Translations under genes and position numbers: made by a program | The notes under the pieces: generated by a model | Told to the model about the DNA's origin: nothing | The model's database searches: none | What the model saw: the letters and a program-made list of their open reading frames with translations, nothing else | Shown here: piece after piece, positions 2,706-58,432 of the stretch | Layout: each line of letters begins with the position of its first letter | Numbering within the stretch: the stretch's first letter is position 1 | From: Patescibacteria group bacterium | GTDB lineage: Bacteria; Patescibacteriota; Microgenomatia; UBA1400; MFAQ01 | Reading direction: 5' to 3' | DNA: 64,000 nt | Assembly (NCBI GenBank): GCA_943355005.1 | Contig: CALRDV010000002.1 | Location: 397-64,396, forward strand

Positions 2706-3473
2706 GTGAAAAGAAAAACATTTCTCTGCTGGATGAATGCAGAAGACCAGCCTTCATCGGTTATTAGTGCAAAGCTAGGCAATGCAGAAAAACCATTTTT
2801 CGTTAGATTGACCGGGGGTTGTGGCTTTATGAGCAGATCAGACGGAGAAGAATCCATAAAAGTTTTACTGGACACACTGACCGGTTTCAACGGTGTACTT
2901 CTTTACGGAGGCACGCGCGTTTACGAACCAAGCTCAAGTTCTTTGTCGGAATTTTCCGTTTTTCCAACCATTTTGGAAGTTCCTCCAATGCTTAGAAAAA
3001 TTAACAGGGGCATGATGTCTTTTGGCATCATCCCTCGGCTAACCAACGTTGAGTTCGATGCTGACCTGGGGCTGATCATCAGTAAAAACGATGAAAACGG
3101 CTTTCTAACAGTCATCCACCCCAATCAAGATATCTGCCTCGTCTTACAAAGAGACGTGGATCGAGGTTTCCCTGGAGATAAATATTGGGATATCGAGTGG
3201 CGTTTTTGTCTGGAAGTCGTTAAGTCATTCCTGGAAAATCGAAATAATTCTGGGACGGTTTTGATTTCATATAACGGAGGTGTTTCCACCGGAAAAGAAA
3301 TCGAAGCCTGGGCCAACAACAATTGGCCGGTTATTCTTTTTGAAAACAGTGGCAGAGTCACTACCGAGTTCTGTAGAAATACAGAATGGTTGGCGGCTCA
3401 CCCATCAGTTTTTGTCGCGAAATCTTCAGAAGATGCTCGCGAACAACTCACATTGTTAGGAGGTCTATCTTGA
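2706..3473 (+). CDS. Hypothetical Rossmann-like protein, possibly SLOG/LOG-like (GG-rich motifs LTGGCGFMS, LLYGGTR, NGGVSTGKE). GTG start. First of a tandem paralog pair.
   Basis: Sigma70-like promoter TTGACT(2626)-17-TAAACT; SD AAGGAGG 5 nt before GTG; 255 aa ORF. Confidence 0.6.
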   Translation: MKRKTFLCWMNAEDQPSSVISAKLGNAEKPFFVRLTGGCGFMSRSDGEESIKVLLDTLTGFNGVLLYGGTRVYEPSSSSLSEFSVFPTILEVPPMLRKINRGMMSFGIIPRLTNVEFDADLGLIISKNDENGFLTVIHPNQDICLVLQRDVDRGFPGDKYWDIEWRFCLEVVKSFLENRNNSGTVLISYNGGVSTGKEIEAWANNNWPVILFENSGRVTTEFCRNTEWLAAHPSVFVAKSSEDAREQLTLLGGLS

Positions 3474-4240
3474 ACCATAATTCACTTCTTGTAACAGTTC
3501 CTGGACCGGGCGTACATCTTCGCGTCTCAGACGCAGGTTTCCCGGCAGACATGGTCTATGTTGCCCAAAATGTCGCCGACACTTGCCGCAAACTTGGCAT
3601 CATACCCAGCGTTCATCGCATTGTTGGTGGCATGAACGTTCCAAACCCAGATGCGATGTATGATTACTTTTTGAATGCCTTTGGTGGACTTAACGGAGCA
3701 CTCATCATGAGTGGCGCCACACGTTGCCTAACAGAGTCAGGTTTCACTCCTTCTGTAGCAGAAGTTGTACCATTTGTGAAGAAGTTCTTACCCAACTCTG
3801 TTACCGCTGGTTCTTTTCCCCGCACTGAAGGCATGACTTTGTCAGGTCATGGAACCCTTTTTGTTGGGTCAGAACACACTGTCATCCCGAATCCCGAGAC
3901 CGAACATGTTGTGATCATCCAGAAAGATGGTAATGATGACTCTCTGCATGATCAGTGGAATGCGGATCTTCAGTTCTATCTCGATTACATGCAACTGCTT
4001 CGAGACGAAATGGGGTTCGTGCCGGTTCTAACAGTTTGGGAAGGTGGCGGTGTTTCAGTCAAAGAAGCCACACAGGGAAATGACCGTGGTTTCCGTGTTT
4101 GCGTGGCAGAGGGATCAGGTCGTGCTTGTAACAACCAGCTCTCACCTGCCAACTTCAATGGCAAAAATATACACCATGTTCCCTACAAAAATGGCACCCT
4201 GCAGCGGACTTTAATGCAGGCATGGAAAATCAGCAAATAA
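3470..4240 (+). CDS. Paralog of the preceding gene (about 256 aa from TTG at 3470; the ORF track starts at 3386). Same GG motifs (LIMSGATR, EGGGVSVKE).
   Basis: AGGAGG 6 nt upstream of in-frame TTG at 3470; 4-nt overlap with upstream stop suggests coupling; collinear similarity to 2706..3473. Confidence 0.55.
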   Translation: MNHNSLLVTVPGPGVHLRVSDAGFPADMVYVAQNVADTCRKLGIIPSVHRIVGGMNVPNPDAMYDYFLNAFGGLNGALIMSGATRCLTESGFTPSVAEVVPFVKKFLPNSVTAGSFPRTEGMTLSGHGTLFVGSEHTVIPNPETEHVVIIQKDGNDDSLHDQWNADLQFYLDYMQLLRDEMGFVPVLTVWEGGGVSVKEATQGNDRGFRVCVAEGSGRACNNQLSPANFNGKNIHHVPYKNGTLQRTLMQAWKISK

Positions 4241-4246
4241 AACAAA

Positions 4247-4275
4247 AGACCCCCGCAATCGCGTGGGTCTTTTTT
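4247..4275 (+). terminator. Rho-independent terminator (GACCCCCGCAATCGCGTGGGTCTTTTTTATT).
   Basis: Hairpin plus T-run directly after the stop at 4240. Confidence 0.6.
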
Positions 4276-4343
4276 ATTGATTTACCCCATTCATCCTGCT
4301 AAAATCCACGTATCGCAATTTAAAATTAAGAAAGGAGTCACCA

Positions 4344-4829
4344 ATGGCTCTAATTATCGATATGCCGAAACTACTGGAGATTCAAGCCTCTGGCTTAGCA
4401 ACCAGGGTTTGGAAGTACGCACCAACCTATTGGCGATATTCGACAAGAGAAGATGTTGAATATGGTCTTGTCAGTCGCGGTCTCAATATCAGTCCAAGAT
4501 CAGTAATTGTCCAAACCCTCGAAGGACCCAAGGAAATGGATGAAATTATTTGCATGGGTCTGGATGGAGAACTCTGGCCAACAAGTATAAAAGATTTTTG
4601 CCTTTCAAAAGTTATTTCAGATAAACCCTCCGATATTCCAGGTTGGAGACTAAGTTACAACAAGCCCGACGATCTCTGCTGGGCCATCCAGGTGGATGAA
4701 GATTTTACCGTCACGGCAGGTCACTCAAAACCCCTTTCTCAAAAAGCAGGAGCCTACCTCCTCTTCAAAGAAAAATGGGCATGGCCCGTCGCAGAACTGC
4801 TGTTCCCCCTATACTACAGACCCGTCTAA
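4344..4829 (+). CDS. Hypothetical protein, 161 aa.
   Basis: SD AAAGGAG before ATG; terminator hairpin at 4835-4859. Confidence 0.55.
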   Translation: MALIIDMPKLLEIQASGLATRVWKYAPTYWRYSTREDVEYGLVSRGLNISPRSVIVQTLEGPKEMDEIICMGLDGELWPTSIKDFCLSKVISDKPSDIPGWRLSYNKPDDLCWAIQVDEDFTVTAGHSKPLSQKAGAYLLFKEKWAWPVAELLFPLYYRPV

Positions 4830-6742: not shown

Positions 6743-7900
6743 TTATACAATTACCCCGCCACCCAAACACTCTCCGCCTTCTGTGTAGAATACTGCACTC
6801 TGTCCGGCCGCGATTCCTCGAATATCTTTATCCAGGATTATCGTCAGCCCATCTCCCATTTCCATCCCCCTTGCGCCAATTAATTCCCCACCATGACGAA
6901 TTCTCACCAAGAGATCATCCATATTCCATTTAGTTTTCGATATTTTATTTATCTCCCCCACCTCAAACTGATCCTCCATGGCGTCATCGGATTCTCCCAC
7001 CACCAATTCATTTTTTTTCGCATCTTTGGAAATCACATAAAATATTGGCGTCTCATTGTCATTGCGAGTTTCGTACTCGAACCGTGGCAATCCAGGAATT
7101 ATTTTATCCTTAGATAATTTTTTTTGAGCCGTTGGATTCATTACCCATCCACCTCTTTGTCCAATGGTATAGAACCACACTCCATCATGAGTTCCCACCT
7201 CATTTCCCTCGGTATCCAACACTTTTCCAACTTGCTTCTTTAATCTTCTGGCCAGAAATTCTTTCACTTCCACATTCCCTACGAAGCAAATTCCCTGACT
7301 ATCTTTGCGGTCGGCCACACTAAGCTTTGCTTCTTTAGCCAATTCTCGCACTTTACCCTTTTCAAAGTCTCCAAGGGGAAAAAGCACACGAGCCAGCTCT
7401 TTCTGAGTCAATTTCCATAGAAAATATGTTTGATCTTTATGTTTATCTTTCGGTATCAGAAGACGTCCCCCGGCCAGTTTTGCATAATGTCCTGTCGCAA
7501 TAAAGTCAAAGCCATTCTCCATCGCCCAGTCAAGGAAAAGTCCAAACTTAATCTCACTGTTACACAATACATCCGGGTTCGGAGTTCTCCCGGCTTCATA
7601 CTCCTCATAAAAATATTTAATCACTCTTTGGTTATATTCTTCGGAGAAATCCAAAACCTTAAAGGGAATTCCCAATTCCAAGCAAGTTTGCAAAGCCATC
7701 TGTCTATCCTCATCGGCTCTACAGCCATTTTTCTTTATCCATTCTTCCCTTGTAATACCATCTTTTTCAATCTCACTTTTCGGTGGCCAGCAATACAAGT
7801 GAACTCCAGTCACGTCATAACCCGCCTTTTTCAAAAGCAACGCACTTACGGCGCTATCCACGCCTCCGGAAATCCCTACAGCCACTTTTAATTGATTCAC
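6743..7900 (-). CDS. mnmA: tRNA-specific 2-thiouridylase MnmA (GTG start), carrying an in-frame type-B repeat insertion (peptide IIPGLPRFEYETRNDNETPIF).
   Basis: N-terminal PP-loop SGGVDS, conserved MnmA core, ORF uninterrupted through repeat 7058-7096. Confidence 0.85.
   Translation of the reverse strand: MNQLKVAVGISGGVDSAVSALLLKKAGYDVTGVHLYCWPPKSEIEKDGITREEWIKKNGCRADEDRQMALQTCLELGIPFKVLDFSEEYNQRVIKYFYEEYEAGRTPNPDVLCNSEIKFGLFLDWAMENGFDFIATGHYAKLAGGRLLIPKDKHKDQTYFLWKLTQKELARVLFPLGDFEKGKVRELAKEAKLSVADRKDSQGICFVGNVEVKEFLARRLKKQVGKVLDTEGNEVGTHDGVWFYTIGQRGGWVMNPTAQKKLSKDKIIPGLPRFEYETRNDNETPIFYVISKDAKKNELVVGESDDAMEDQFEVGEINKISKTKWNMDDLLVRIRHGGELIGARGMEMGDGLTIILDKDIRGIAAGQSAVFYTEGGECLGGGVIV
7058..7096. 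repeat. Type-B element inside mnmA (GTCATTGCGAGTTTCGTACTCGAACCGTGGCAATCCAGG).
   Basis: Repeat family member; translated in frame. Confidence 0.85.
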
Positions 7901-7937: not shown

Positions 7938-8624
7938 TTATAAATTTTCAAATATCACACCTAGCCCACCTTTTGGCAAAAATCTCAAATCATCAGTCAT
8001 GAACCTTGGCATATCGGCATTAATAATGTCACCGGCGGCTTCACAGCCTAAAACCGTTCTTTCTCTTAGATGTTTCCCAATTCCATTTGTACCCTGTCTT
8101 CGAACGCCCTCTTGTTGATCTTCGGCCGCCATTATCCACATTAGTTTATTCACAACAGAAAAAATTGCCTCCATCCTCACAATAGTCTCCTTTTTCCAAT
8201 CGCCACCTGGCGTCTTCCCATCACCACAATATTTGTTGGGAACAAAACCAAATCCTATTTTGGGTAATCGCTTCACATAACTTTCAATAAAGTCTTGTAT
8301 CTCGGAATCTTCAACCAAGGGTTTAACCCCCTCACCAAAAATACTTCCACCTGGCACTTTATTAAGCTCCAAGACTACTTTTTTCATCAACTCTACAATC
8401 CTTTCTTCACCAAATTTTTCAAAAACAGTTTTAGCCTGTTCACTTAGATTTGCCTTTCCTTCAATATTAGTAAAATCAATCCCTGTTTTTTTAAGTAGTT
8501 CTCTTTTCCAAACCCTCTCTGGTTCACCCAAGAAAACAACTTCACCAGTCTTTATTTTTTCCTCCACCAGGTTTCCAATGAACCTCAGTTGCTCCTTAAG
8601 CTCAGTAGGTTGTTTTTCCATCAT
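7938..8624 (-). CDS. Hypothetical protein, 228 aa; paralogous to 8674..9342 (shared ...N.L..IMAxxD... region).
   Basis: ORF; local similarity VNKLMWIMAAEDQ vs LNELTYIMASSDE. Confidence 0.5.
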   Translation of the reverse strand: MMEKQPTELKEQLRFIGNLVEEKIKTGEVVFLGEPERVWKRELLKKTGIDFTNIEGKANLSEQAKTVFEKFGEERIVELMKKVVLELNKVPGGSIFGEGVKPLVEDSEIQDFIESYVKRLPKIGFGFVPNKYCGDGKTPGGDWKKETIVRMEAIFSVVNKLMWIMAAEDQQEGVRRQGTNGIGKHLRERTVLGCEAAGDIINADMPRFMTDDLRFLPKGGLGVIFENL

Positions 8625-8673
8625 GCCAATATTATATCCCTATCAGAATCAAAACAAAAAAATCTTACAAATT

Positions 8674-9342
8674 TTAATTCTTCCCTAATACTTTTACCAA
8701 AGCCTCTAAGCCCTTATCAGAAATTCCTCTAATATGCTCTCTGTATTCAGGTGTGCCATACCTTTTAGAATTTTCAGGAAAAGTCGCTCCACCGCTCTCT
8801 AGTCCTTTAATGATTTGAGACCTCAGATTGTCTGTAGCTGAAGATTCATTTTGACGAATTTTTGCCTCAAGTTCATCTGAAGATGCCATAATATAAGTCA
8901 ATTCATTTAAAATTGACATTATCATCTCAATATTTTTAGTGGTATTTTCCTGCCAATTTCCCTCATTTTCCGCTGATAAATATTTCTGTGTCGAAAAATC
9001 AAAAACAAACTTATCCGATTGTTCTGACATAAACTGTCTAGTGAAGTCTTCAATCCCTGGCAATTTGACATCACTATAAACCTGTTTAATAACATCAATC
9101 ACCATTTCAGATGTTTTGTCTTTTCCAAATACTCTTACCAGATTTGCTGCATCCTCAGCTGCACTTCCAAAAATAATTGCCGATTCCAACTTTGCTCCAT
9201 TATCCACCATTGCAGCCCTTAAACTATTTCTTTCTGGCTCTTTTATTATTATGTCATCAGCAGCCGCAACAGCTTTCTCCATATTTTGAGCAATAAATCC
9301 TAAAGCTTCGGGTGATAACTCAACTTTTGGTTCTTGATTCAT
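8674..9342 (-). CDS. Hypothetical protein, 222 aa (paralog of the preceding gene).
   Basis: ORF; paralogous motif. Confidence 0.5.
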   Translation of the reverse strand: MNQEPKVELSPEALGFIAQNMEKAVAAADDIIIKEPERNSLRAAMVDNGAKLESAIIFGSAAEDAANLVRVFGKDKTSEMVIDVIKQVYSDVKLPGIEDFTRQFMSEQSDKFVFDFSTQKYLSAENEGNWQENTTKNIEMIMSILNELTYIMASSDELEAKIRQNESSATDNLRSQIIKGLESGGATFPENSKRYGTPEYREHIRGISDKGLEALVKVLGKN

Positions 9343-9360: not shown

Positions 9361-11061
9361 TCATTTAAAAATTTCCATATTTCTCTCACACAGCTCATAC
9401 CCCGGCCTCTGCACCAGGCACTCTTCAAACTTTTTCTTCGCCTCTTCCTTTTTTCCCGTCCAAGAATAATAAAGTCCCCAGTTATTTAGTAGCTCTGGAT
9501 ATTTCGGATATATTTCATCCGCTTTCTCCATAAATTTTTTGGCATTCTCCAAATCATTCTTCATCAGATATATCGCCGCCTTATTACTCTGCGCCATCAC
9601 ACTTCCTGTCGCCACCCCACCATCATGCAAAAACAGTCTCTCTTGAGACAACCAGTCCAAATTCCTGACAAATGTCCTCCCCGCCAACAAAAATAATATT
9701 GCAATAAATATCGGTGCAGAAGAATAGCCAAACAACCGCACGGACCATGTACATGAGAGCCGAAGGGGATCCCGCTTTTCAGCGGGACGAAACAGTAACG
9801 CGGGAGTACGGTTTTTGGCGGTCTTCGAACCGATTAACATTGCAATCATCACCACCCCCAAACTAGGCAAAAACCAAAGTCTCTCTCCAAATATAGTTCC
9901 AATCGGAAACAAAATATTCCCGGTAATCAATATCGGACCCCAAAACATCACCATCCCCACCATCGTCATTCCGAGCGACCTGCCCGCTGTGGCGGGAGTC
10001 GAGGAATCCCCCTCCACCCCATCAGTCATTCCGGGCTTGACCCGGAATCTATATAAATAAATACAACTTAATGCAATCATCACCAGCCCCACCACCACCC
10101 TCCAATCAGTCCAGCTCTCCACCAACTTAATTTGGTTATACGAATAGTCATAGCTAAGATTTATTGGAAAGAGAACTTTCCCGACTCCAAAAGGAATCAA
10201 AGCTATCCCGTTTATCATTCTTTTTTCCGCACTAACAAACTTAAGAGGATTCTCCACCATCGTCGCTCTTGTTTCCATTCCACCTCCACCCAGCACCAGT
10301 AGCCTCATCATCCCAAATCCCAACATTGCCATTATCACCAGTATCATCGCCGCTGTCTTTTCACTTGCGGAAGTTCCATTCGATGACTTGTCATTCCCGA
10401 CCTGATCGGGAATCCATCCGGAGACTCCACCACCTCTAATAAATATCAAATACATTAATATCACCACTCCCACCACCGCCGTCTCTTTCGACAGCATCGC
10501 CAAAAACAAAAATAACGCACTCACATCCCATCTATTCTTAAAGTTTTCCAGAATAGCCAAAAGCATAAATCCAAGTGAAAGCATCTCCGCCCTTCCCACG
10601 ATATTATTCACCACCTCGGTATGAATCGGCATCACCACAAACACCAACGCCCCCCAAAACGCCAACTTCTCTCGCCATTTGTCATTGCGAATCTCGTAGT
10701 CGAGCCCTGCCTGCCGGCAGGCAGGTGTGGCAATCCAGGAACCATCAAGAAACTTTCTCATCACCCCATACACCAGCCAACACACCCACGAATATAGCAG
10801 CACATTACCAAGCCGAAATCCCCAAGCCCCCTTACCGGTTATTAAAGAATTCAAATAGAAACTAAAGCTCGTCATCGGTCTATACAGAGATTTCTCCTGA
10901 TCCAAATAGTAGTACGGTCTCGTCCACACTTTTATCAAGCTTTCCACTCTTCCCATCCCCGGATCTCCCGCAATCACTTTTAGGTCGTCCTGCACAAATC
11001 CACCAAAAATACTCACAAAATACAAAGCAAACGCAGATAAGAAAATTACCCAACCCTTCAT
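9361..11061 (-). CDS. Multi-pass membrane GT-C-like glycosyltransferase with C-terminal TPR repeats (TMTC/PMT-like; DD motif in first loop). The ORF stays intact across five repeat-element insertions.
   Basis: N-terminal TM helices with FVQDDLKV motif, C-terminal TPR (AIYLMKNDLENAKKF...YYSWTGKKEEAKKKF); repeat-derived peptides LDYEIRNDK, WIPDQVGNDK, KPGMTDGVEGDSSTPATAGRSLGMT. Confidence 0.65.
   Translation of the reverse strand: MKGWVIFLSAFALYFVSIFGGFVQDDLKVIAGDPGMGRVESLIKVWTRPYYYLDQEKSLYRPMTSFSFYLNSLITGKGAWGFRLGNVLLYSWVCWLVYGVMRKFLDGSWIATPACRQAGLDYEIRNDKWREKLAFWGALVFVVMPIHTEVVNNIVGRAEMLSLGFMLLAILENFKNRWDVSALFLFLAMLSKETAVVGVVILMYLIFIRGGGVSGWIPDQVGNDKSSNGTSASEKTAAMILVIMAMLGFGMMRLLVLGGGGMETRATMVENPLKFVSAEKRMINGIALIPFGVGKVLFPINLSYDYSYNQIKLVESWTDWRVVVGLVMIALSCIYLYRFRVKPGMTDGVEGDSSTPATAGRSLGMTMVGMVMFWGPILITGNILFPIGTIFGERLWFLPSLGVVMIAMLIGSKTAKNRTPALLFRPAEKRDPLRLSCTWSVRLFGYSSAPIFIAILFLLAGRTFVRNLDWLSQERLFLHDGGVATGSVMAQSNKAAIYLMKNDLENAKKFMEKADEIYPKYPELLNNWGLYYSWTGKKEEAKKKFEECLVQRPGYELCERNMEIFK
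9713..9836. repeat. Copy A of an about 90-125 bp dispersed repeat (GGTGCAGAAGA.TAGCCAA....TTTTTGGCG.GGT.TTCGAACCGAT), in frame inside CDS 9361..11061.
   Basis: Aligns with 13960-14072 and, at the termini, with 49734-49822. Confidence 0.75.
9965..10009. repeat. Type-C element GTCATTCCGAGCGACCTGCCCGCTGTGGCGGGAGTCGAGGAATCC, in frame in a CDS.
   Basis: GTCATTCC...GGAATCC termini with internal palindrome. Confidence 0.8.
10025..10064. repeat. Type-A element plus TATATAAATAA extension, in frame in a CDS.
   Basis: GTCATTCCGGGCTTGACCCGGAATC followed by TATATAAATAA, as at 12944 and 15437. Confidence 0.8.
10390..10415. repeat. Type-A element GTCATTCCCGACCTGATCGGGAATCC, in frame in a CDS.
   Basis: Identical core to the copies at 12919, 15412 and 47065. 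Confidence 0.85.
10681..10739. repeat. Type-B element with a nested 20-bp perfect palindrome (CCTGCCTGCCGGCAGGCAGG), in frame in a CDS.
   Basis: Equals the 2513 copy plus an internal palindromic insertion. Confidence 0.8.
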
Positions 11062-11189: not shown

Positions 11190-11639
11190 CTACTTAAAAA
11201 TTATTTTTTCAATTCCATTACCAAAAAGTTTGTCAACCGCCTCAATCCCCTCTGCTCTTATTCTACTTTCGGCTGTTTCAGTACCAAACTTAACCTCTTT
11301 AATTGCTAATTGAAATGCATCTGTATACACACTCATTAATCGCCTAAATTCATCTTCACCATATAATGCTTTTTTTTGCTTACCCCACTCTTGATCTACA
11401 ACACACGTTTCAGCATCGGTGAAATCTCCTTTAAAAAGCAATTCAGAGGCCTTATTAGCCTTATCAACTATTTGTTTACGAGTTTCGTCTTGCGGAAAAG
11501 AATCTGGGTGCATTATTCCAATACCTGCAAAAAACGCCTCTCTCACATCTCTTTTGCTACTAAAGTCGGGTGACGCAACAATTTCATCTTGAATCTGTTC
11601 CGCAATCCCTTTATTTTCTACAACTGCATCTAAAGCCAT
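11190..11639 (-). CDS. Hypothetical protein, 149 aa.
   Basis: ORF; shares an identical about 30-bp upstream leader with the next gene. Confidence 0.5.
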   Translation of the reverse strand: MALDAVVENKGIAEQIQDEIVASPDFSSKRDVREAFFAGIGIMHPDSFPQDETRKQIVDKANKASELLFKGDFTDAETCVVDQEWGKQKKALYGEDEFRRLMSVYTDAFQLAIKEVKFGTETAESRIRAEGIEAVDKLFGNGIEKIIFK

Positions 11640-11668
11640 ACAAAAATTCTACAACAAATTACATCAAT
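11640..11668 (-). promoter_or_regulatory. Duplicated leader/promoter (revcomp GATGTAATTTGTTGTAGAATTTTTGT immediately before ATG); TAGAAT -10-like motif 6-7 nt from the start codon.
   Basis: Near-identical copy at 11912-11940 in front of gene 11681..11911. Confidence 0.5.
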
Positions 11669-11680
11669 AAACAATTTTAT

Positions 11681-11911
11681 TTATCTTCTACCTTCCGGAC
11701 TGAATCCAGGTATAGCCTCAACACTGACACTTTTACCTTCTCTTCTAAGTTGTGCATCAACGCCTATTTGATTTTCTCTATCTAGCGCCCGTCTTTCTCG
11801 CACAGCAGCAGCATCTTCCCTTAATTTTTTCTCCCAAGGGCTTAAATCATTTAACGACGCCATTCTTTCTGCATATTCCTTACGCAATTGAATAGGTCCT
11901 TTTACAGTCAT
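11681..11911 (-). CDS. Small hypothetical protein, 76 aa, Arg/Glu-rich.
   Basis: ORF preceded by the duplicated leader. Confidence 0.45.
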   Translation of the reverse strand: MTVKGPIQLRKEYAERMASLNDLSPWEKKLREDAAAVRERRALDRENQIGVDAQLRREGKSVSVEAIPGFSPEGRR

Positions 11912-11940
11912 ACAAAAATTCTACAACAAATTACATCACT
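11912..11940 (-). promoter_or_regulatory. Second copy of the duplicated leader/promoter.
   Basis: Identical 28-30 nt to 11640-11668. Confidence 0.5.
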
Positions 11941-11969: not shown

Positions 11970-12923
11970 CTACCTCACCATCTCCCTCGCCACATTTATT
12001 TCCGGGAATGCTTTTTCAAACCACTTGAATTGTGCAGTTCTATTCACTTCAAAGATTCTCCACTGCTTAGCCTCTTCATCCCAAGCCACATCCAGCCCTG
12101 CAAAATCAGCCTTAAGAACTTTCGTTGCCTCGACACTTAGTCTTTGCAATTCTGCCATCTGCTCTTTACTAAACTTCGGTTTAATTTTCGATAGCTCTTC
12201 CTGCTGAGATAGCACTTGGAACTTATCTTTTTGTCTGTGTTTCATCATCCCCAATATCTCTCCATTTAGCACCAACACTCTATACCATCTTCGTACTTTC
12301 AAAACAGGCTGAATCAAGACGTCTCCCTCACTATATTTCTGAGAAAGTTTTACCAGGCGGGTCAGTGATTCTGCTAGTTTCACATTTTTTCCATGAGATC
12401 CAAATCTCGCCTTGACCATTACCGGCACAAATTCTCCTTTCCGTTTAGATAGTATTTCCAAATATCTTTTCCATCCTCTAGCCCCACGGAAAGATACAAA
12501 CGGAATTACCGGTAGTCCCGCTTCAGCCAGCAATATTCCTTGTTCAAGTTTCCCCATAAGTGGAAACATCTTAAAGCTTTCCCCATTGATCACAGAAATA
12601 TCTCTCTCTGAATTTTTCGTTTGCTCCAAGAACTCCAAAATCACCGACTTCACCCCTAGCATACTTTCCCCACCTCTTTTAGTCGCGGCTCTCGGGATAA
12701 TCAAATCATATTCACTCAGTTTTTTTCCGGTTCCCAAATCTACAATTGGCTTACCCATCTTGCTTACACCAATTCGCACATGTTCATAGTTCACCTTATC
12801 CACGGAATATCCCAAATTACTCGCCTCTTCGGCTAATCTCTTGGGTTCATACTCCCCTCTAAATCTAGTCAATATTAATATCTTTTTCATTACTTTTCTT
12901 GATGTCGTCTTAATATCTGTCAT
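11970..12923 (-). CDS. ATP-grasp ligase, RimK/alpha-L-glutamate-ligase-like. The true start may be the internal ATG at 12890 (MKKILIL); the extreme N-terminus of the track ORF overlaps a repeat element.
   Basis: ATP-grasp signature regions (…EFVPVMVKARFGSHGKNV…, …FAGLDVAWDEE…WRIFEVN); about 300 aa. Confidence 0.7.
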   Translation of the reverse strand: MTDIKTTSRKVMKKILILTRFRGEYEPKRLAEEASNLGYSVDKVNYEHVRIGVSKMGKPIVDLGTGKKLSEYDLIIPRAATKRGGESMLGVKSVILEFLEQTKNSERDISVINGESFKMFPLMGKLEQGILLAEAGLPVIPFVSFRGARGWKRYLEILSKRKGEFVPVMVKARFGSHGKNVKLAESLTRLVKLSQKYSEGDVLIQPVLKVRRWYRVLVLNGEILGMMKHRQKDKFQVLSQQEELSKIKPKFSKEQMAELQRLSVEATKVLKADFAGLDVAWDEEAKQWRIFEVNRTAQFKWFEKAFPEINVAREMVR

Positions 12924-12958
12924 TCCCGACCTGATCGGGAATCTATATAAATAATTCC
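12919..12958. repeat. Type-A element plus TATATAAATAATTC extension.
   Basis: GTCATTCCCGACCTGATCGGGAATC TATATAAATAATTC. Confidence 0.85.
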
Positions 12959-12974
12959 TTAATTTGATTTTTAA

Positions 12975-13000
12975 TTTTTTGGCGCGGTTCGAACCGATAA
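12975..13000. repeat. Partial copy (3' terminus) of the long repeat: TTTTTTGGCGCGGTTCGAACCGATAA.
   Basis: 25/25 identity to 14047-14071. Confidence 0.7.
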
Positions 13001-13922: not shown

Positions 13923-13959
13923 CTCAGTTAATTAAATCATTATTAAAACATCTTTGAAG

Positions 13960-14072
13960 GTGCAGAAGACTAGCCAACAAACCGCACGGAAGCTGTACAT
14001 AGGAGCCGAAGGGAATCCCACTATTGCGGGACGAGATAGTTACGAGTGAGTACGGTTTTTGGCGCGGTTCGA
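13960..14072. repeat. Copy B of the long dispersed repeat (intergenic).
   Basis: Collinear with 9713-9836, with the same termini. Confidence 0.75.
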
Positions 14073-14095
14073 ACCGATAAGAAGTTTTCATATTT

Positions 14096-19638: not shown

Positions 19639-22092
19639 TCAGGCAACCACAAAGTTAATTGTTTTTCCTTTAATATAAATTATCTTTTTAATTTCTCCAG
19701 CCAATAAATATTTCTCCAATTTTTCAATCTTCTTAACTGTATCTACAACAGCTTCCTCAGAGGCATCATTCTCCACTTCTATTGTCTCTCTCATTTTTCC
19801 ATTTATTTGGACAGAAATAGTTATCACATCGGTCATCAAATATTTTTCCTCAAATTTCGGAAATTCTTGAGCATGGACACTAAACTCTCCACCCAATAAA
19901 TTCCAAAGTTCTTCTGTTACAAAAGGAGCAAACGGAGCCAGCACCTTTACGACTCTGCCCAAATCTTCACTGCTTACCTCCGCTCCACTACGAAGCAACG
20001 CGTTTGTTGTCTCCATTAGTTTCGCAATTACTGTGTTGAACTTAAATTGAGACAAATCTTCTCCAGCACCTTTTATTAATTTATGAATCAACCTGGAACT
20101 CTCCAAGTCGGTAACCACATACTTTCCGGCGTTCTCAGTCACAAGCCTAAATATTTTCTCGATAAATCTTCTAACGCCCACCAGTGATCTTTCATTCCAC
20201 GCCATAGTCGAATCAAATGGTCCCATAAACATCATGTAGGTCCTCAGGACGTCCGCTCCGTAGGTTTCGGCCACTACATCGGGTACGATTACATTCCCCT
20301 TACTTTTACTCATTCTGTTGCCATCTGGTCCCAGCAGTACCCCATGAGACAGTCTCTTTTTATATGGCTCAGGATAAATTTTTGGCACCACCCCCAAGTC
20401 CCACAAGAACTGATAGATAAATCTTGAATAAAGTAAATGCAAAGTGTTATGTTCATCTCCACCCACATAGACATCCACCGGCATCCAGTACTCCATTTTT
20501 TCTTGACTGGCTAACATTTCTCTATTTTTTGGGTCACAATATCGAAGAAAATACCAGTCACTTCCGGCCCAGTTTGGCATCGTGTCGGTTTCTCTTTTTG
20601 CTTTTCCACCACAATTCGGACAAGTCGTCTCGACCCATTCTTTTATATTGGCGAGTGGTGACTCTCCTGTGTCGGTCGGCTGGTACTTCTCGACCTCCGG
20701 CAAAACCACTGGCAAATCTTTTTCTGGAACTGGTATCCACGACCCTGTCATTCCGGGCTTGACCCGGAATCCATCCCCCTCCGGTACACAATTCTCACAC
20801 CAGATCATCGGAATGGGCTCCCCCCAATAATGCTGTCTAGAAAAAATCCAATCCCTTAAGTGGTATGTCACTGCTTTTTCTCCAAAGCCCTTTTCTTCTA
20901 TAAGACTGATTATCAAATCATCCGGCACAAATTCAGAATCTATCGGCAAATTATATTTATCGGCAAAAGCCTTATCCCTATCATCGTGTGCTGGCACCGC
21001 CATAATCGCTCCGGTTCCGTAACCCATGAGAACATAATCACTTATCCAAATTGGAATTTCTTTATTGTTAAGCGGATTTACGGCATAAATTCCCGTAAAG
21101 ACGCCTGTCTTCGCTCTGGTGTCATCAGTTCGCTCAATCTCACTCCTCCCCTTCACCTCATCAAGGTATCTTTTAATGTCATTCCTGGCTTGACCAGGAA
21201 TCCATCCAATTAATTCCGAATTCTCCATCAAATGCTTCACCATCGGATGCTCCGGAGCCAATACCAAGAAAGTTGCCCCCGGTAAAGTATCCGGTCTCGA
21301 AGTAAACACCTCAAGAATATCAGTTTCACTCTTCCTCCCTGTCATTCCGGGCTTGACCCGGAATCCATCTGGAGTTTTTATTTCAAATTTTATCTTTGCC
21401 CCCTCTTTCTTCCCTATCCAATTAACCTGTGCCGCCTTAACTTTTTCGATAAAATCAGTATCTTTCAAACCTTCGAGCAATCGATCTGCATAATCCGTGA
21501 TTTTCACTACCCATTGTGAGATAGTTCTCTTTTCCGTTTCAGATCCGCATCTTTCACATTTACCATCAATCACCTCTTCATTAGCCAAACCAATTTTATC
21601 TTTGGGGCACCAATTAATCGGCATCTCTTCTTTATGAGCCAATCCTTTTTCAAAAAGTTTTACAAATATCCATTGCGTCCATTTGTAGTAGTCCGGCATT
21701 GTTGAGTTCACTTCTCTATCCCAATCAAAAGAAAATCCCAGTTTCCTCATCTGCATCCGGAAATTGTCAGTCACTTCTTTGGTTATTTCTTTTGGATTTT
21801 TTCCGCTCTTTATCGCATAGTTCTCCGTTGGAAGCCCGAATGCGTCCCATCCCATGGGGAACATCACATTTTTTCCCATCATCCTTTGGTATCGGGCATA
21901 GACATCGGCTCCAGTCATAGCAAACCCATGTCCCACATGTAGCCCGCTTCCGGATGGATAAGGAAACTCGGTCAGCATATAGAATTTTTGTTTATCTGCT
22001 TCAAAGTCCAGACCTTTATAGCCGGCAAAACCGTCATACTTACCTATCCACTTCTTCTCAATTTCCTTAAAATCATAGCTTGCCATACGCAT
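19639..22092 (-). CDS. leuS: Leucyl-tRNA synthetase with three in-frame type-A repeat insertions. The likely start is MRMASYDF (ATG at 22092 or 22086); the track ORF start at 22110 is the SD translated.
   Basis: Class I HMGH/KMSKS motifs (…PSGSGLHVGHGF…, …KMSKSKGN…), conserved LeuRS N-terminus YDFKEIEKKW; inserts GFRVKPGMTGRKSE, WIPGQARNDIKR, GFRVKPGMTGSWIP. Confidence 0.9.
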   Translation of the reverse strand: MRMASYDFKEIEKKWIGKYDGFAGYKGLDFEADKQKFYMLTEFPYPSGSGLHVGHGFAMTGADVYARYQRMMGKNVMFPMGWDAFGLPTENYAIKSGKNPKEITKEVTDNFRMQMRKLGFSFDWDREVNSTMPDYYKWTQWIFVKLFEKGLAHKEEMPINWCPKDKIGLANEEVIDGKCERCGSETEKRTISQWVVKITDYADRLLEGLKDTDFIEKVKAAQVNWIGKKEGAKIKFEIKTPDGFRVKPGMTGRKSETDILEVFTSRPDTLPGATFLVLAPEHPMVKHLMENSELIGWIPGQARNDIKRYLDEVKGRSEIERTDDTRAKTGVFTGIYAVNPLNNKEIPIWISDYVLMGYGTGAIMAVPAHDDRDKAFADKYNLPIDSEFVPDDLIISLIEEKGFGEKAVTYHLRDWIFSRQHYWGEPIPMIWCENCVPEGDGFRVKPGMTGSWIPVPEKDLPVVLPEVEKYQPTDTGESPLANIKEWVETTCPNCGGKAKRETDTMPNWAGSDWYFLRYCDPKNREMLASQEKMEYWMPVDVYVGGDEHNTLHLLYSRFIYQFLWDLGVVPKIYPEPYKKRLSHGVLLGPDGNRMSKSKGNVIVPDVVAETYGADVLRTYMMFMGPFDSTMAWNERSLVGVRRFIEKIFRLVTENAGKYVVTDLESSRLIHKLIKGAGEDLSQFKFNTVIAKLMETTNALLRSGAEVSSEDLGRVVKVLAPFAPFVTEELWNLLGGEFSVHAQEFPKFEEKYLMTDVITISVQINGKMRETIEVENDASEEAVVDTVKKIEKLEKYLLAGEIKKIIYIKGKTINFVVA
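20747..20772. repeat. Type-A element inside leuS.
   Basis: GTCATTCCGGGCTTGACCCGGAATCC; translated as PGMTG... on the minus strand. Confidence 0.85.
21178..21203. repeat. Type-A element inside leuS.
   Basis: GTCATTCCTGGCTTGACCAGGAATCC; translated WIPGQARND. Confidence 0.85.
21341..21366. repeat. Type-A element inside leuS.
   Basis: GTCATTCCGGGCTTGACCCGGAATCC. Confidence 0.85.
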
Positions 22093-31711: not shown

Positions 31712-31737
31712 GTCATTCCTGGCTTGACCAGGAATCC
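31712..31737. repeat. Type-A element between aspS and glyQS.
   Basis: GTCATTCCTGGCTTGACCAGGAATCC. Confidence 0.85.
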
Positions 31738-49733: not shown

Positions 49734-49822
49734 GGTGCAGAAGACTAGCCAAAATCGAGCGCAGGGATGCCCCCGTACTCGGAGCGAGCCGAGCACTGAT
49801 TTTGACGGGCTTCGAACCAAAC
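49734..49822. repeat. Copy C of the long dispersed repeat (conserved termini, divergent middle), upstream of thrS.
   Basis: 5' GGTGCAGAAGACTAGCCAA and 3' GGGCTTCGAACC match copies A and B. Confidence 0.65.
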
Positions 49823-50002
49823 GATTTTAATTTGCAAAACAAAAAACTACCTTAACATTTGCAGGACCCCGCCTCGTTGGCGGGGGGTTCCATCCTGCTT
49901 GCTGGTAGCCGACTTAATTAGAGCTCTGGCGCTCATTTCCTGTTCCTCCGGGTTGGTAGCCCATCACCGAAACAATTTACTTCTAATTCTATTCTACCAC
50001 TA

Positions 50003-51478
50003 TCAGTCTTTTTTCACCCTTAATGGCGGGAATAGAACACCTTCTCTACCCGAGATATCTTCCAGGAACCAGAAAAGCCTTTCTGAGTGGCCCCAGCCGG
50101 ATGTCGGTGGCATACCGTACTCCAACATTTCCACAAAGTCGGCATCGAGCATCTGTGCCTCTTCATCCCCGGCTTCTCTGTGCCCTTGCTGTTCTTCAAA
50201 TCTTTGCTTCTGATCTTCAGGGTCATTCAGCTCCGTGTACCCATTCCCCAGTTCACTACCGGCGATAATCACATGGAATCTTTCTGTTAGCTCCGCACTC
50301 TCAGGTTTACTTTTGGCAAGCGGAGACATAAACTTCGGCTCATTAATTAGATATGCTGGACCTGCAATTGTTTTTCTGATTACTTTCCAGCAGTTATCAA
50401 TCAGTCTACTTCTATTAATCGCCCCTGTCAGCGCTACTCCGTGTTTCTTGACCACAGCTAGCATTTCGGCTTCGGTGGACTTAAAGATATCAATTCCTAG
50501 TTTCTCTTTGATAATTTCCACATAATCAATCTCCTTCCAATCATCTGCCAAGTCGTACTCCATCCCTCGGCTTACAAATTTAGTTTTTCCGTAAACTTCT
50601 AGAGCAATATACCTGTAAAGCTCTTTTACCAGCTCCATATTGTCTCGATAATCTGCATACGCCCAATACCATTCACACTGGTAGTATTCAGGCAAATGCT
50701 CATCATCCATTCCCTCATTCCGAAAATTAGGACCAATCGTATAAATTTTCTCAAAACCTGCTCCAATTAGTCTCTTCTGATAGAGTTCGGTGGATATTCT
50801 CAAGAAAAAGTCCTGGTCAATCGCATTCATATGAGTCACAAATGGTTTGGCATCAGCTCCTCCGGTCACACTTTCCAATACCGGTGTTTCCATTTCAATA
50901 AACCCTTTATCTTTCAGATATTTTCTAGTCACTTCCCAAAACTTTGACTTTCTTTCAAAACGTCTCATCTTCTCCTGATCCATCAGAAGATCCAGATATC
51001 TTTTCCTAAAGGCTTCGTCTGGATCCACAATCCCAGCCCATTTATCAGGCAAGGGTAATCTTGCTTTTGTCAGTATTTTAATTTCTTTTACTTGTAGAGA
51101 GACCTCACCTGTTCTCGTTTTTACGACAACTCCTTTCGCTTGAATAATGTCACCAATATCCAAAAGTTCCAGGTCTTCAAATCCGAGAATCTGTTTTTCA
51201 TTATCAGTCGGACCCATCATGTCTTCCCGGATAAACAGCTGGATTCTCCCAGTCTGGTCTTGAATCTGACCAAAAATCAACTTTCCATGTTCCCTCCAAG
51301 CCATGATTCTTCCGGCAAGAACCATTTCTTTGCTTTCATACTTCTCGAAGTTATTTACGACCTCTTTGTTTTCGGCCTCTTTTTGAGACCTTGCAGGATA
51401 CAAATCAATACCCATGAGTTTCAGGGTATCTATCTTCTTTTCTCTTTCCTTTAGAATTTCTTCCAGTCTGCTTGCCAT
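50003..51478 (-). CDS. lysS: Lysyl-tRNA synthetase, class II.
   Basis: N-terminal OB fold, class II motifs, …ELGNGYTELNDP…; 491 aa. Confidence 0.85.
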   Translation of the reverse strand: MASRLEEILKEREKKIDTLKLMGIDLYPARSQKEAENKEVVNNFEKYESKEMVLAGRIMAWREHGKLIFGQIQDQTGRIQLFIREDMMGPTDNEKQILGFEDLELLDIGDIIQAKGVVVKTRTGEVSLQVKEIKILTKARLPLPDKWAGIVDPDEAFRKRYLDLLMDQEKMRRFERKSKFWEVTRKYLKDKGFIEMETPVLESVTGGADAKPFVTHMNAIDQDFFLRISTELYQKRLIGAGFEKIYTIGPNFRNEGMDDEHLPEYYQCEWYWAYADYRDNMELVKELYRYIALEVYGKTKFVSRGMEYDLADDWKEIDYVEIIKEKLGIDIFKSTEAEMLAVVKKHGVALTGAINRSRLIDNCWKVIRKTIAGPAYLINEPKFMSPLAKSKPESAELTERFHVIIAGSELGNGYTELNDPEDQKQRFEEQQGHREAGDEEAQMLDADFVEMLEYGMPPTSGWGHSERLFWFLEDISGREGVLFPPLRVKKD

Positions 51479-58080: not shown

Positions 58081-58127
58081 GTCATTCCGGGCTTGAATCG
58101 GCCGCTGGTACCCGAAGGGGTGAATCC
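58081..58127. repeat. Type-A element with internal insertion (GTCATTCCGGGCTTGAATCGGCCGCTGGTACCCGAAGGGGTGAATCC). It supplies the C-terminal codons and the stop of the upstream CDS.
   Basis: Family termini; overlaps the 3' end of ORF 58082..58432. Confidence 0.75.
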
Positions 58128-58432
58128 ATCCGGATTTTTCTTTCAACTATTTCCTCTTTAATTTGTTTCAGTTTCCACATAAACATTTTTCCTTTACTTC
58201 TGGCTCCGGCATCCATCACAAAACTTTTGGCCCGTTCCACCAGCTCTCTGGGGTTGCTTTTCACGATTCTCATGTATATTGCTGTGTGAGCCACGTCATC
58301 CAAAGCCAAGGCCAGCCTGTAGGCATAGTCCTGCCATTCCCTACTTATTCTCTTTTGCTTGGTCTCGTCTATCTCGTACTTATCCAAGATCTTCGTCATC
58401 GAACTAAAACCTATTTTATTCATCTTTAACAT
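58082..58432 (-). CDS. Hypothetical protein, 116 aa. Its last about 16 residues (…RMDSPLRVPAADSSPE) are encoded by a repeat element.
   Basis: ORF; the C-terminal tail maps onto repeat 58081-58127. Confidence 0.45.
   Translation of the reverse strand: MLKMNKIGFSSMTKILDKYEIDETKQKRISREWQDYAYRLALALDDVAHTAIYMRIVKSNPRELVERAKSFVMDAGARSKGKMFMWKLKQIKEEIVERKIRMDSPLRVPAADSSPE

Follow-up and report, generated by a model that had tools for sequence, protein, structure and literature searches.

A 64,000-nucleotide stretch of contig CALRDV010000002.1, called the window below, belongs to a member of Candidatus Collierbacteria (candidate phyla radiation, CPR, or Patescibacteria) and carries a gene for a membrane glycosyltransferase of the GT-C type. 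Four inter-helix loops of this enzyme have very probably been colonised by repetitive extragenic palindromes (REPs) of the CGTC-tagged kind and by a palindromic element of about 120 bp, all of which are read through in frame. The gene and the elements in it are as follows.

9361..11061, minus strand: intact open reading frame (ORF) for a 566-aa GT-C-fold membrane glycosyltransferase (TMTC/PMT-like, DUF1736) with C-terminal TPR repeats
10681..10737, plus strand: short element of type B (clamp ATTGC/GCAAT, tag TGTC, tail CCA) in loop 1, encoding WIATPACRQAGLDYEIRND
10706..10725, either strand: nested perfect 20-bp palindrome CCTGCCTGCCGGCAGGCAGG within the type-B element at 10681, unique in the window
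10390..10416, plus strand: short element of type A (TGTC-ATTCCCGA-CCTGA-TCGGGAAT-CCA), 27 nt, in loop 2, encoding WIPDQVGND
10025..10062, plus strand: short element of type A (ATTCCGGG-CTTGA-CCCGGAAT) with a TATATAAATAA tail in loop 3, encoding ..IYLYRFRVKPGMT
9965..10010, plus strand: short element with a type-A clamp, an enlarged interior hairpin (CCCGC-TGTG-GCGGG) and tag CGTC in loop 3, encoding GDSSTPATAGRSLGMT
9713..9836, plus strand: long element, copy A, about 120 bp, genic, in loop 4; arms GGTGCAGAAGAATAGCCAAACAACCG and CGGTTTTTGGCGGTCTTCGAACC pair, the apical hairpin is variable, and the copy encodes IGSKTAKNRTPALL..GYSSAP

An earlier reading of the same letters (the sequence-only reading) had described a GT-C/TPR ORF of 566 aa that remains open through four short elements, at 9965, 10025, 10390 and 10681, and through one copy of a long repeat at 9713-9836, and all of these are present in the gene. 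The long copy is indeed a repeat, matching 13959-14078 at 83% and sharing its ends with 49734-49822. The peptides listed for the elements (LDYEIRNDK, WIPDQVGNDK and KTAKNRTPALLFRPAEKRDPLRLSCTWSVRLFGYSSAP) were correct, and the 20-bp perfect palindrome claimed for the 10681 copy was found at 10706-10725.

Host gene and its enlarged loops

The host ORF starts with ATG and runs for 566 codons on the minus strand with no internal stop. Pfam assigns it TMTC_DUF1736 above the cut-off, followed by TPR repeats at the C-terminus, and the protein has a GT-C fold with several membrane passes and, in the first extracytoplasmic loop, the conserved acidic motif of GT-C enzymes. Its homologs in the protein database number 475, and those with names are from Patescibacteria. 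Twenty-eight orthologs align colinearly over the full length (residues 1-566) and retain the invariant GT-C and TPR residues; the QDD directly after the first helix is among the many invariant positions. Judged from this sequence evidence, the ORF is a real and very probably functional GT-C/TPR protein. The closest ortholog, P0002 (locus L016), has 72% amino acid identity, and synteny between the window and L016 extends over 7 kb.

About 16 orthologs have only 468-477 aa, and their loops 1 to 4 measure 6, 10, 14 and 13-19 aa, versus 30, 29, 34 and 48 aa in the window protein. The extra residues coincide with the repeat elements and are confined to four loops between hydrophobic helices, so that the claim of five frame-preserving insertions is upheld by comparison with the orthologs. 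The element-coded peptides, which also include FRVKPGMTDG, KTAKNRTPALL and KTAKNRTPALLFR, are low-confidence parts of the structural model (predicted local distance difference test score, pLDDT, below 50-60). The gene makes up 2.7% of the window and holds 5 of its approximately 23 short and long elements (Poisson p = 4e-4).

On the plus strand the short elements read GTCATTGCGAATCTCGTAGTCGAGCCCTGCCTGCCGGCAGGCAGGTGTGGCAATCC at 10681, GTCATTCCCGACCTGATCGGGAATCC at 10390, GTCATTCCGGGCTTGACCCGGAATC at 10025 and GTCATTCCGAGCGACCTGCCCGCTGTGGCGGGAGTCGAGGAATCC at 9965. The 10681 copy folds as a branched hairpin, and its palindrome CCTGCCTGCCGGCAGGCAGG is missing from the sister copies at 2513 and 7058. 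The 10025 copy is identical to two copies at 20747 and 21341 in the gene for leucyl-tRNA synthetase (LeuRS); its TATATAAATAA tail also follows the copies at 12919 and 15412, and the YLYRFR motif of the 10025 segment is common to orthologs P0003, P0004 and P0010.

Loops 1 and 3 contain REP-derived sequence in P0002, P0003, P0004 and P0010; in L016, loop 1 has a type-B REP at the 10681 site with a different interior and loop 3 has a different REP remnant. The long element occupies the same site in loop 4 of orthologs of 51-72% amino acid identity (L016, L019, L017, L014). Peptides of REP type (..RNDG, ..GMT, WIP..) recur in these loops of many remoter orthologs, always in antisense-type frames. 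Since elements lie in the same loops of diverged relatives, the loops have long been colonised, with gain, loss and replacement. Only single short copies look young, to judge by their sequences. The 10390 copy is identical to those at 12919, 15412 and 47065 and is absent from the closest relative, P0002 of L016, which has a clean 45+9-nt gap there; P0003 and P0011 have a REP at this site. The sequence-only reading had offered strong selection for frame retention or very recent invasion. The first of these agrees with the open frame of every element-bearing ortholog, and the second does not agree with the occupation of the same loops at 51-72% identity.

Two further peptide signatures of hairpin repeats, ..VRSFDFAQDDEND.. 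in loop 1 of P0011 and ..LIPAFAGM in P0050, were seen in the same loops, which suggests on the basis of these peptides that further REP families may colonise this protein family in other CPR lineages.

Survival of the copies would be a matter of a selection filter, in which those retained by an essential or useful gene have a net length that is a multiple of 3, a stop-free frame and a permissive loop as their site. A REP in the observed orientation is stop-free in two of three frames (WIPxQxxND and GFRxxxGMT) and its basic unit is 27 nt, so in-frame survival is not improbable once selection removes disruptive insertions. The long-element site in loop 4 is a hot spot, where different lineages have different members of the family.

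Short and long hairpin families

The short elements were collected with the pattern GTCATTSC..GVAATC, which has 18 exact matches in the 64-kb window versus 0.08 expected from shuffles; a looser scan of the window gave 19 copies. Aligned on their ends, the copies share the layout (C/T)GTC - ATT(C/G)C... hairpin ...G(G/C)AAT - CCA. The tag directly 5' of the stem is TGTC in 12 of the 19 copies, CGTC in 6 and AGTC in 1, and the tail is ..AATC-CA in 13, with CTA, CTC or CCC in the remainder. The stem consensus is ATTCCNNN, and the stems ATTCCCGA/TCGGGAAT, ATTCCGGG/CCCGGAAT and ATTCCTGC/GCAGGAAT have 8 bp and begin with A-T/T-A. The clamp covaries between the types, ATTCC/GGAAT in type A and ATTGC/GCAAT in type B, the latter being retained as an outer clamp. 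Folding confirms the hairpins; plain copies have an 8-bp stem, for example ATTCCCGA-CCTGA-TCGGGAAT with a 5-nt loop, and loops of 4-5 nt (CCTGA, CTTGA, GAAG) are found in 11 plain type-A copies.

Di Nocera, De Gregorio and Rocco (2013, BMC Genomics 14:522; PMC3733652) are the source on CGTC-tagged REPs. As defined there, these repeats have a CGTC tag, often TGTC, a stem of 8-9 bp whose first two pairs are A-T/T-A, a loop of 4-5 nt and a CCA tail, although loops of other lengths occur in some families. By their sequence features the four short elements of the glycosyltransferase gene are CGTC-tagged REPs of this superfamily. CGTC-1 corresponds to Neisseria dRS3 and R. conorii RPE-6, and CGTC-4 to RPE-4 (PMC3733652). 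The repeats have been reported from five phyla, mostly from alpha-Proteobacteria, with no mention of CPR; in several species they lie in frame within genes, at times two per ORF, including tRNA-modification genes (PMC3733652). No dedicated transposase is known for them, and they form mainly head-to-head dimers, which is a tendency and not a defining sequence feature (PMC3733652). A limited literature search found nothing relevant on REPs in Patescibacteria. Like the published CGTC REPs, the window elements are dispersed in many copies with several subtypes per genome, and no flanking transposase was seen in the ORFs scanned. They differ from them in their CPR host, in their single orientation with head-to-tail arrangement, in a second clamp (ATTGC/GCAAT), in composite interiors that reach 57 nt and in one case include a nested palindrome, and in the presence of four copies in one gene and three in LeuRS.

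Other genes of the window contain in-frame short elements, so repeats within genes are not peculiar to the glycosyltransferase gene.

20747-20773, 21178-21204 and 21341-21367, plus strand: three type-A REPs in frame in LeuRS, each opposite a gap of 9-15 residues relative to T. thermophilus LeuRS 1h3n
7058..7094, plus strand: type-B REP in frame in MnmA, encoding ..PGLPRFEYETRND.., opposite a 13-aa gap relative to the MnmA ortholog of locus L038
28165..28195, plus strand: type-B REP in frame in MurB

Positions 2474-2594 hold a head-to-tail array of three REP subtypes (type A at 2474, type B at 2513 and enlarged type A at 2559). It lies in the spacer between the 16S rRNA gene (minus strand, 738-2235) and a divergent ORF on the plus strand, some 240-360 nt upstream of the former; the array alone generates a spurious ORF of 103 codons. 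The first ATG of a RimK-like ORF (11970-12923) comes from the REP at 12919-12945 (..GGAATGAC). As the Rimk_N domain starts at residue 14, the true start is probably a downstream Met (..VMKKILIL), in which case this REP falls in the 5' leader of the ORF; the copy is 100% conserved at the syntenic, intergenic position in L016. A truncated and apparently decayed REP at 58081-58098, GTCATTCCGGGCTTGAATCGGCC.., has its left half whole and its right half gone and overlaps ORF 58082-58432 at its 3' end.

Beyond copy A, the long element is represented in the window by two more copies and a remnant.

13959..14078, plus strand: copy B, in the intergenic spacer of two ATP-grasp genes, with 83% identity to copy A and 93% to its syntenic counterpart in L016
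49734..49822, plus strand: copy C, intergenic between two aminoacyl-tRNA synthetase genes, with shared arms and a different interior
12976..12998, plus strand: 3'-arm remnant, intergenic, 100% conserved in L016

Metagenomes were searched for further members with one pattern scan, which returned 46 loci, about the number expected by chance; approximately 15 true copies were left after BLAST filtering. The family now comprises 21 copies, of which three belong to the window and 18 to 17 other loci, from several Collierbacteria metagenomes. They sit either in frame in genes or in tight intergenic spacers, where their orientation to the flanking genes is mixed. All copies have the arms GGTGCAGAAGnnTAGCCAAnnAACCGCACG and GAGTACGGTTTTTGGCGnnnTTCGAACC (family arms GGTGCAGAAGnnTAGCCAA.. 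and ..GGTTTTTGGCGnnnTTCGAACC), a variable tip and a length of 100-120 nt. Pairing of the predicted long hairpin reaches 94.7% over 12 copies, and both sides have changed in 9 of 33 pairs, versus 3.2 in shuffles (0 of 500) and 0-3 in slid controls. The flanks of some copies only prolong the palindrome (ATCGG..CCGAT). In L019 a full 88-nt element lies between two ORFs of about 320 aa upstream of the GT-C gene, at a place equated with 12976-12998 from gene order alone.

The genic placement is again not limited to the glycosyltransferase. In L038 a long copy (3561-3654, within gene 3118-4362) is in frame in the HUP domain of MnmA, where it gives a 40-aa insert ..HAKNRAHTKLYRPAFGRD.. The pattern is reciprocal, as the window MnmA is without the long insert and has its type-B REP elsewhere.

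By analogy with described repeats, the 124-bp element would be classed as an RPE/MITE-like long hairpin (Rickettsia palindromic element; miniature inverted-repeat transposable element) with conserved arms and a variable tip. A tRNA-like or attC-like element, a template or variable repeat of a diversity-generating retroelement and domain V of a group II intron were considered as well and were dropped by inspection, because the consensus motifs or the A-specific mismatch pattern were lacking. A GC-rich hairpin, CCCCGCC-TCGT-TGGCGGGG, lies at 49866-49888, just past copy C and near the 3' end of an aminoacyl-tRNA synthetase gene on the minus strand (50003-51478). It looks like a terminator that is unrelated to the repeat families.

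Orientation, conservation and competing explanations

The tagged strand is the plus strand for 19 of 19 short and 3 of 3 long copies of the window (p = 4e-6), and REPs in L001, L016 and L022 are likewise on the C-rich strand. Measured on the plus strand, third-codon GC skew is similar for genes of the plus strand (-0.42) and of the minus strand (-0.38). As the skew is independent of gene direction, the asymmetry is strand-wide and replicational, with the plus strand as the lagging strand throughout; the 16S gene is on the minus strand. A skew of about -0.4 is unusually strong for the replication type. Given that the tagged strand of every copy is on the lagging, C-rich strand, the elements may have spread by a strand-specific process on single-stranded DNA (ssDNA) at the replication fork, RAYT/IS200-like or other, which is the weaker part of the proposed mechanism.

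Several observations weigh against the account of CGTC REPs and a long palindrome that invaded the loops and are translated there. Six type-B and two enlarged type-A copies (2559 and 9965) have interiors of about 20-45 nt that form further hairpins and are larger than the 4-5-nt loop of the definition. The groups 2474/2513/2559, 9965/10025 and 47023/47065 are head-to-tail, and no head-to-head dimers are present. The REP at 31712 is the only one strictly inside a plus-strand transcription unit, and REPs inside plus-strand genes number 0 versus approximately 3.5 expected. With a single REP in such a unit, replication-linked and transcription-linked orientation are poorly separated. Target-site duplications were not found by eye on the aligned flanks of either element type, and no transposase was found near the copies in about 20 window ORFs and 10 ORFs of related loci (L018, L035, L036, L038, L040). 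Finally, that all five inserts are transcribed and translated as loop extensions is a prediction from conservation of the ORF.

Two other explanations compete with this account. One is that the elements never reach the protein, being taken out or passed over by intron-like splicing, by ribozyme cleavage and ligation, or by translational bypassing as in mitochondrial byp elements or T4 gene 60, so that the mature protein resembles the 470-aa orthologs. Such GC-rich hairpins in an AT-rich gene are byp-like, the encoded peptides show no conservation, and the reading frame of the long element varies. Against this, in every element-bearing ortholog examined the frame is open through the element and restored downstream, at lengths of 117, 117, 117, 96, 92, 92 and 113 nt with compensating flanks, and with a frame that is always open and restored skipping would be unnecessary. 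Intergenic copy B has stops in five of six frames, whereas genic copy A is open in two of three sense frames, and the REP lengths and phases fit stop-free frames. Rfam, run at the gathering threshold on the whole window and at an E-value threshold on the element regions, returned the 16S rRNA and noise only, with no RNA family, ribozyme or intron. Skipping is accordingly rated as highly improbable. On the other explanation the ORF is a pseudogene, consists of two fused genes or was produced in assembly by the collapse of repeats in a metagenome bin. The contig is metagenome-assembled, repeats are a classic cause of misassembly, and the exact protein is recorded from this one contig alone. The sequence-only reading had itself named a fusion or a pseudogene as what would overturn it, and neither was borne out by the colinear ortholog alignment with its invariant GT-C/TPR residues or by the intact ORF, in which stops and frameshifts number zero. 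Independent assemblies from other samples (L016, L019, L017, L014) have the same architecture and the same long-element site, and the synteny with L016 also speaks for a correct contig. We see hardly any chance that the ORF is a pseudogene, a fusion or an artefact. The reading of translated loop insertions is therefore preferred to both.

A third explanation concerns what keeps the long hairpin in place. It holds that the hairpin is a functional nucleic-acid element under purifying selection, acting as a structured part of the mRNA or operon transcript or as a recognition site in ssDNA, and that the ORF has adapted to read-through. Compared with its L016 counterpart, the genic long copy has 93% identity and 38 of 41 third positions conserved (93%), versus 80% identity and 248 of 413 third positions (60%) in the surrounding core coding sequence (Fisher p = 1e-5). 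Versus L014, whose protein is 51% identical, the element has 84% identity and its flanks have 58-68%. The reading phase of the element is 2 (IGSKTAKNRTPA..) in the window, L016, L019 and L017 and 0 (FEVRQIPYSRV..) in L014, where the resulting peptide is unrelated. Orthologous pairs (A-A', B-B') are 93% identical and paralogs 83-86%, and identity remains about 85% even for copies that come from unrelated contexts and different metagenomes. Slow change of the DNA, two reading frames and the covariation in pairing together indicate that the hairpin is maintained and not the peptide, and this points to maintenance at the level of nucleic acid, as far as sequence comparison can tell.

Other findings run counter to a function of the hairpin. 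The sister genes P0005 and P0007, with 92% nucleotide identity, differ in the variant of the element that occupies the site, and so do P0014 and P0017, so that replacement or recombination could explain the high similarity. Some windows of the coding sequence are equally conserved between the window and L016 (0.92), and the element is missing, or present as deletion remnants only, in many orthologs. Rfam gave no match, the orientation to neighbour genes is mixed, and the asymmetry of G-U versus A-C changes, with two events each way, picks no strand. Template switching that corrects quasipalindromes can, in the absence of selection, produce what looks like compensatory change. Function as an explanation is thus possible but unlikely on present weighing. 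A model of plain vertical inheritance with purifying selection was tempered by the variant difference between P0005 and P0007. In these groundwater glycosyltransferase variants (L017 versus L064), overall identity is 92%, but about 200 nt around loop 4 are unrelated; the P0007 variant of the long element is that of P0010, and the gene has the look of a mosaic formed by recombination. Among 62 orthologs, about half have inserts of 40-87 aa at loop 4, of at least 6 variant types, and several short loops resemble deletion remnants. Either a functional element or a hot spot of recombination or insertion may thus account for the site.

A broader idea can be voiced, which we regard as rather doubtful. 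The hairpin family might be a conserved, trans-recognised nucleic-acid element of Collierbacteria (structured RNA or ssDNA site for an enzyme) that is selected even in ORFs, where any open frame serves for read-through, and that, with the one-stranded CGTC REPs, marks a mobilisation system coupled to the replication fork. If so, the enzyme, a long-missing mobiliser of CGTC REPs, might be identifiable in these tiny genomes.

Next to the glycosyltransferase gene, the hypothetical ORFs on either side (7938-9342 and 11190-11911) have no Pfam match and 35-45% DNA identity to the syntenic L016 stretch, versus about 80% in neighbouring genes; the conserved gene therefore has variable islets on both sides. 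A 36-nt direct repeat with 94% identity (11631-11666 and 11903-11938) spans the leaders and start codons of two small ORFs on the minus strand (11190-11639 and 11681-11911). In sense orientation the leader has a -10-like box, TAGAAT, and a promoter or leader thus seems to have been duplicated.

Significance and relation to known repeat systems

The inserts indicate that the loops of essential proteins (LeuRS, MnmA, MurB) and of a membrane glycosyltransferase can accept hairpin insertions repeatedly, and they provide a natural insertion-tolerance map for a GT-C enzyme. In annotation of CPR genomes, odd low-complexity segments of the ..RNDG, ..GMT and WIP.. kinds would be recognised as repeat-derived, which bears on CPR statistics of protein length and "novel domains". 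With one-strand orientation and few genes, these are good genomes in which to seek the enzyme that moves CGTC REPs, and the frame-independent DNA conservation of the long hairpin is a testable hint of function.

Among known systems, GTAG REPs and bacterial interspersed mosaic elements (BIMEs), with their REP-associated tyrosine transposases (RAYT, TnpA-REP) in REPtrons, are similar in being short tagged hairpins of high copy number, and the single-strand, hairpin-specific mobilisation proposed for REPtrons would yield a strand-biased orientation. The window elements differ in having a CGTC/TGTC tag instead of GTAG, and no RAYT or other Y1 transposase was present in the ORFs scanned. ERIC/IRU, Correia (CREE) and other MITEs resemble the long element in being imperfectly palindromic, about 100-150 bp long and bounded by inverted repeats, and they often lie in transcribed intergenic spacers. 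ERIC is also unusually conserved between species. Unlike these, the long element showed no TA or other target-site duplication and, in the ORFs scanned, no parent insertion sequence, and its interior is modular, with a variable apical hairpin; the likeness is one of form. The byp elements of Magnusiomyces mitochondria and T4 gene 60 are likewise GC-rich hairpin inserts in coding sequence, but byps break the frame and are skipped, whereas here the frame is open and restored.

The closest parallel is found in the palindromic elements of Rickettsia. According to the passages on them in two later papers, RPE-1-type families are palindromes of 100-150 bp that are abundant in coding and intergenic DNA (Ogata et al., 2000, Science; 2002, Genome Res; via PMC10969869, PMC1779305). 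The same passages describe RPEs in frame in unrelated housekeeping genes and some insertions older than the species split, such as RPE-7 in PheT (PMC10969869, PMC1779305). The long element of Collierbacteria is similarly palindromic and multi-copy, genic and intergenic, and in frame in unrelated genes (loop 4 of the GT-C protein and L038 MnmA), and its host is likewise a small-genome, host-dependent bacterium; it is likened to RPEs by size, fold and placement. Set beside RPEs, it is read in two frames among orthologs, its DNA exceeds the flanking codons in conservation, and its site is a hot spot with replacement of variants. The case is the Rickettsia phenomenon of "selfish DNA in genes", now in a new phylum. 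Known biology explains the finding, and what is new in detail is its host phylum, the number of elements in one gene, their uniform orientation and the conservation of the long hairpin regardless of reading frame.

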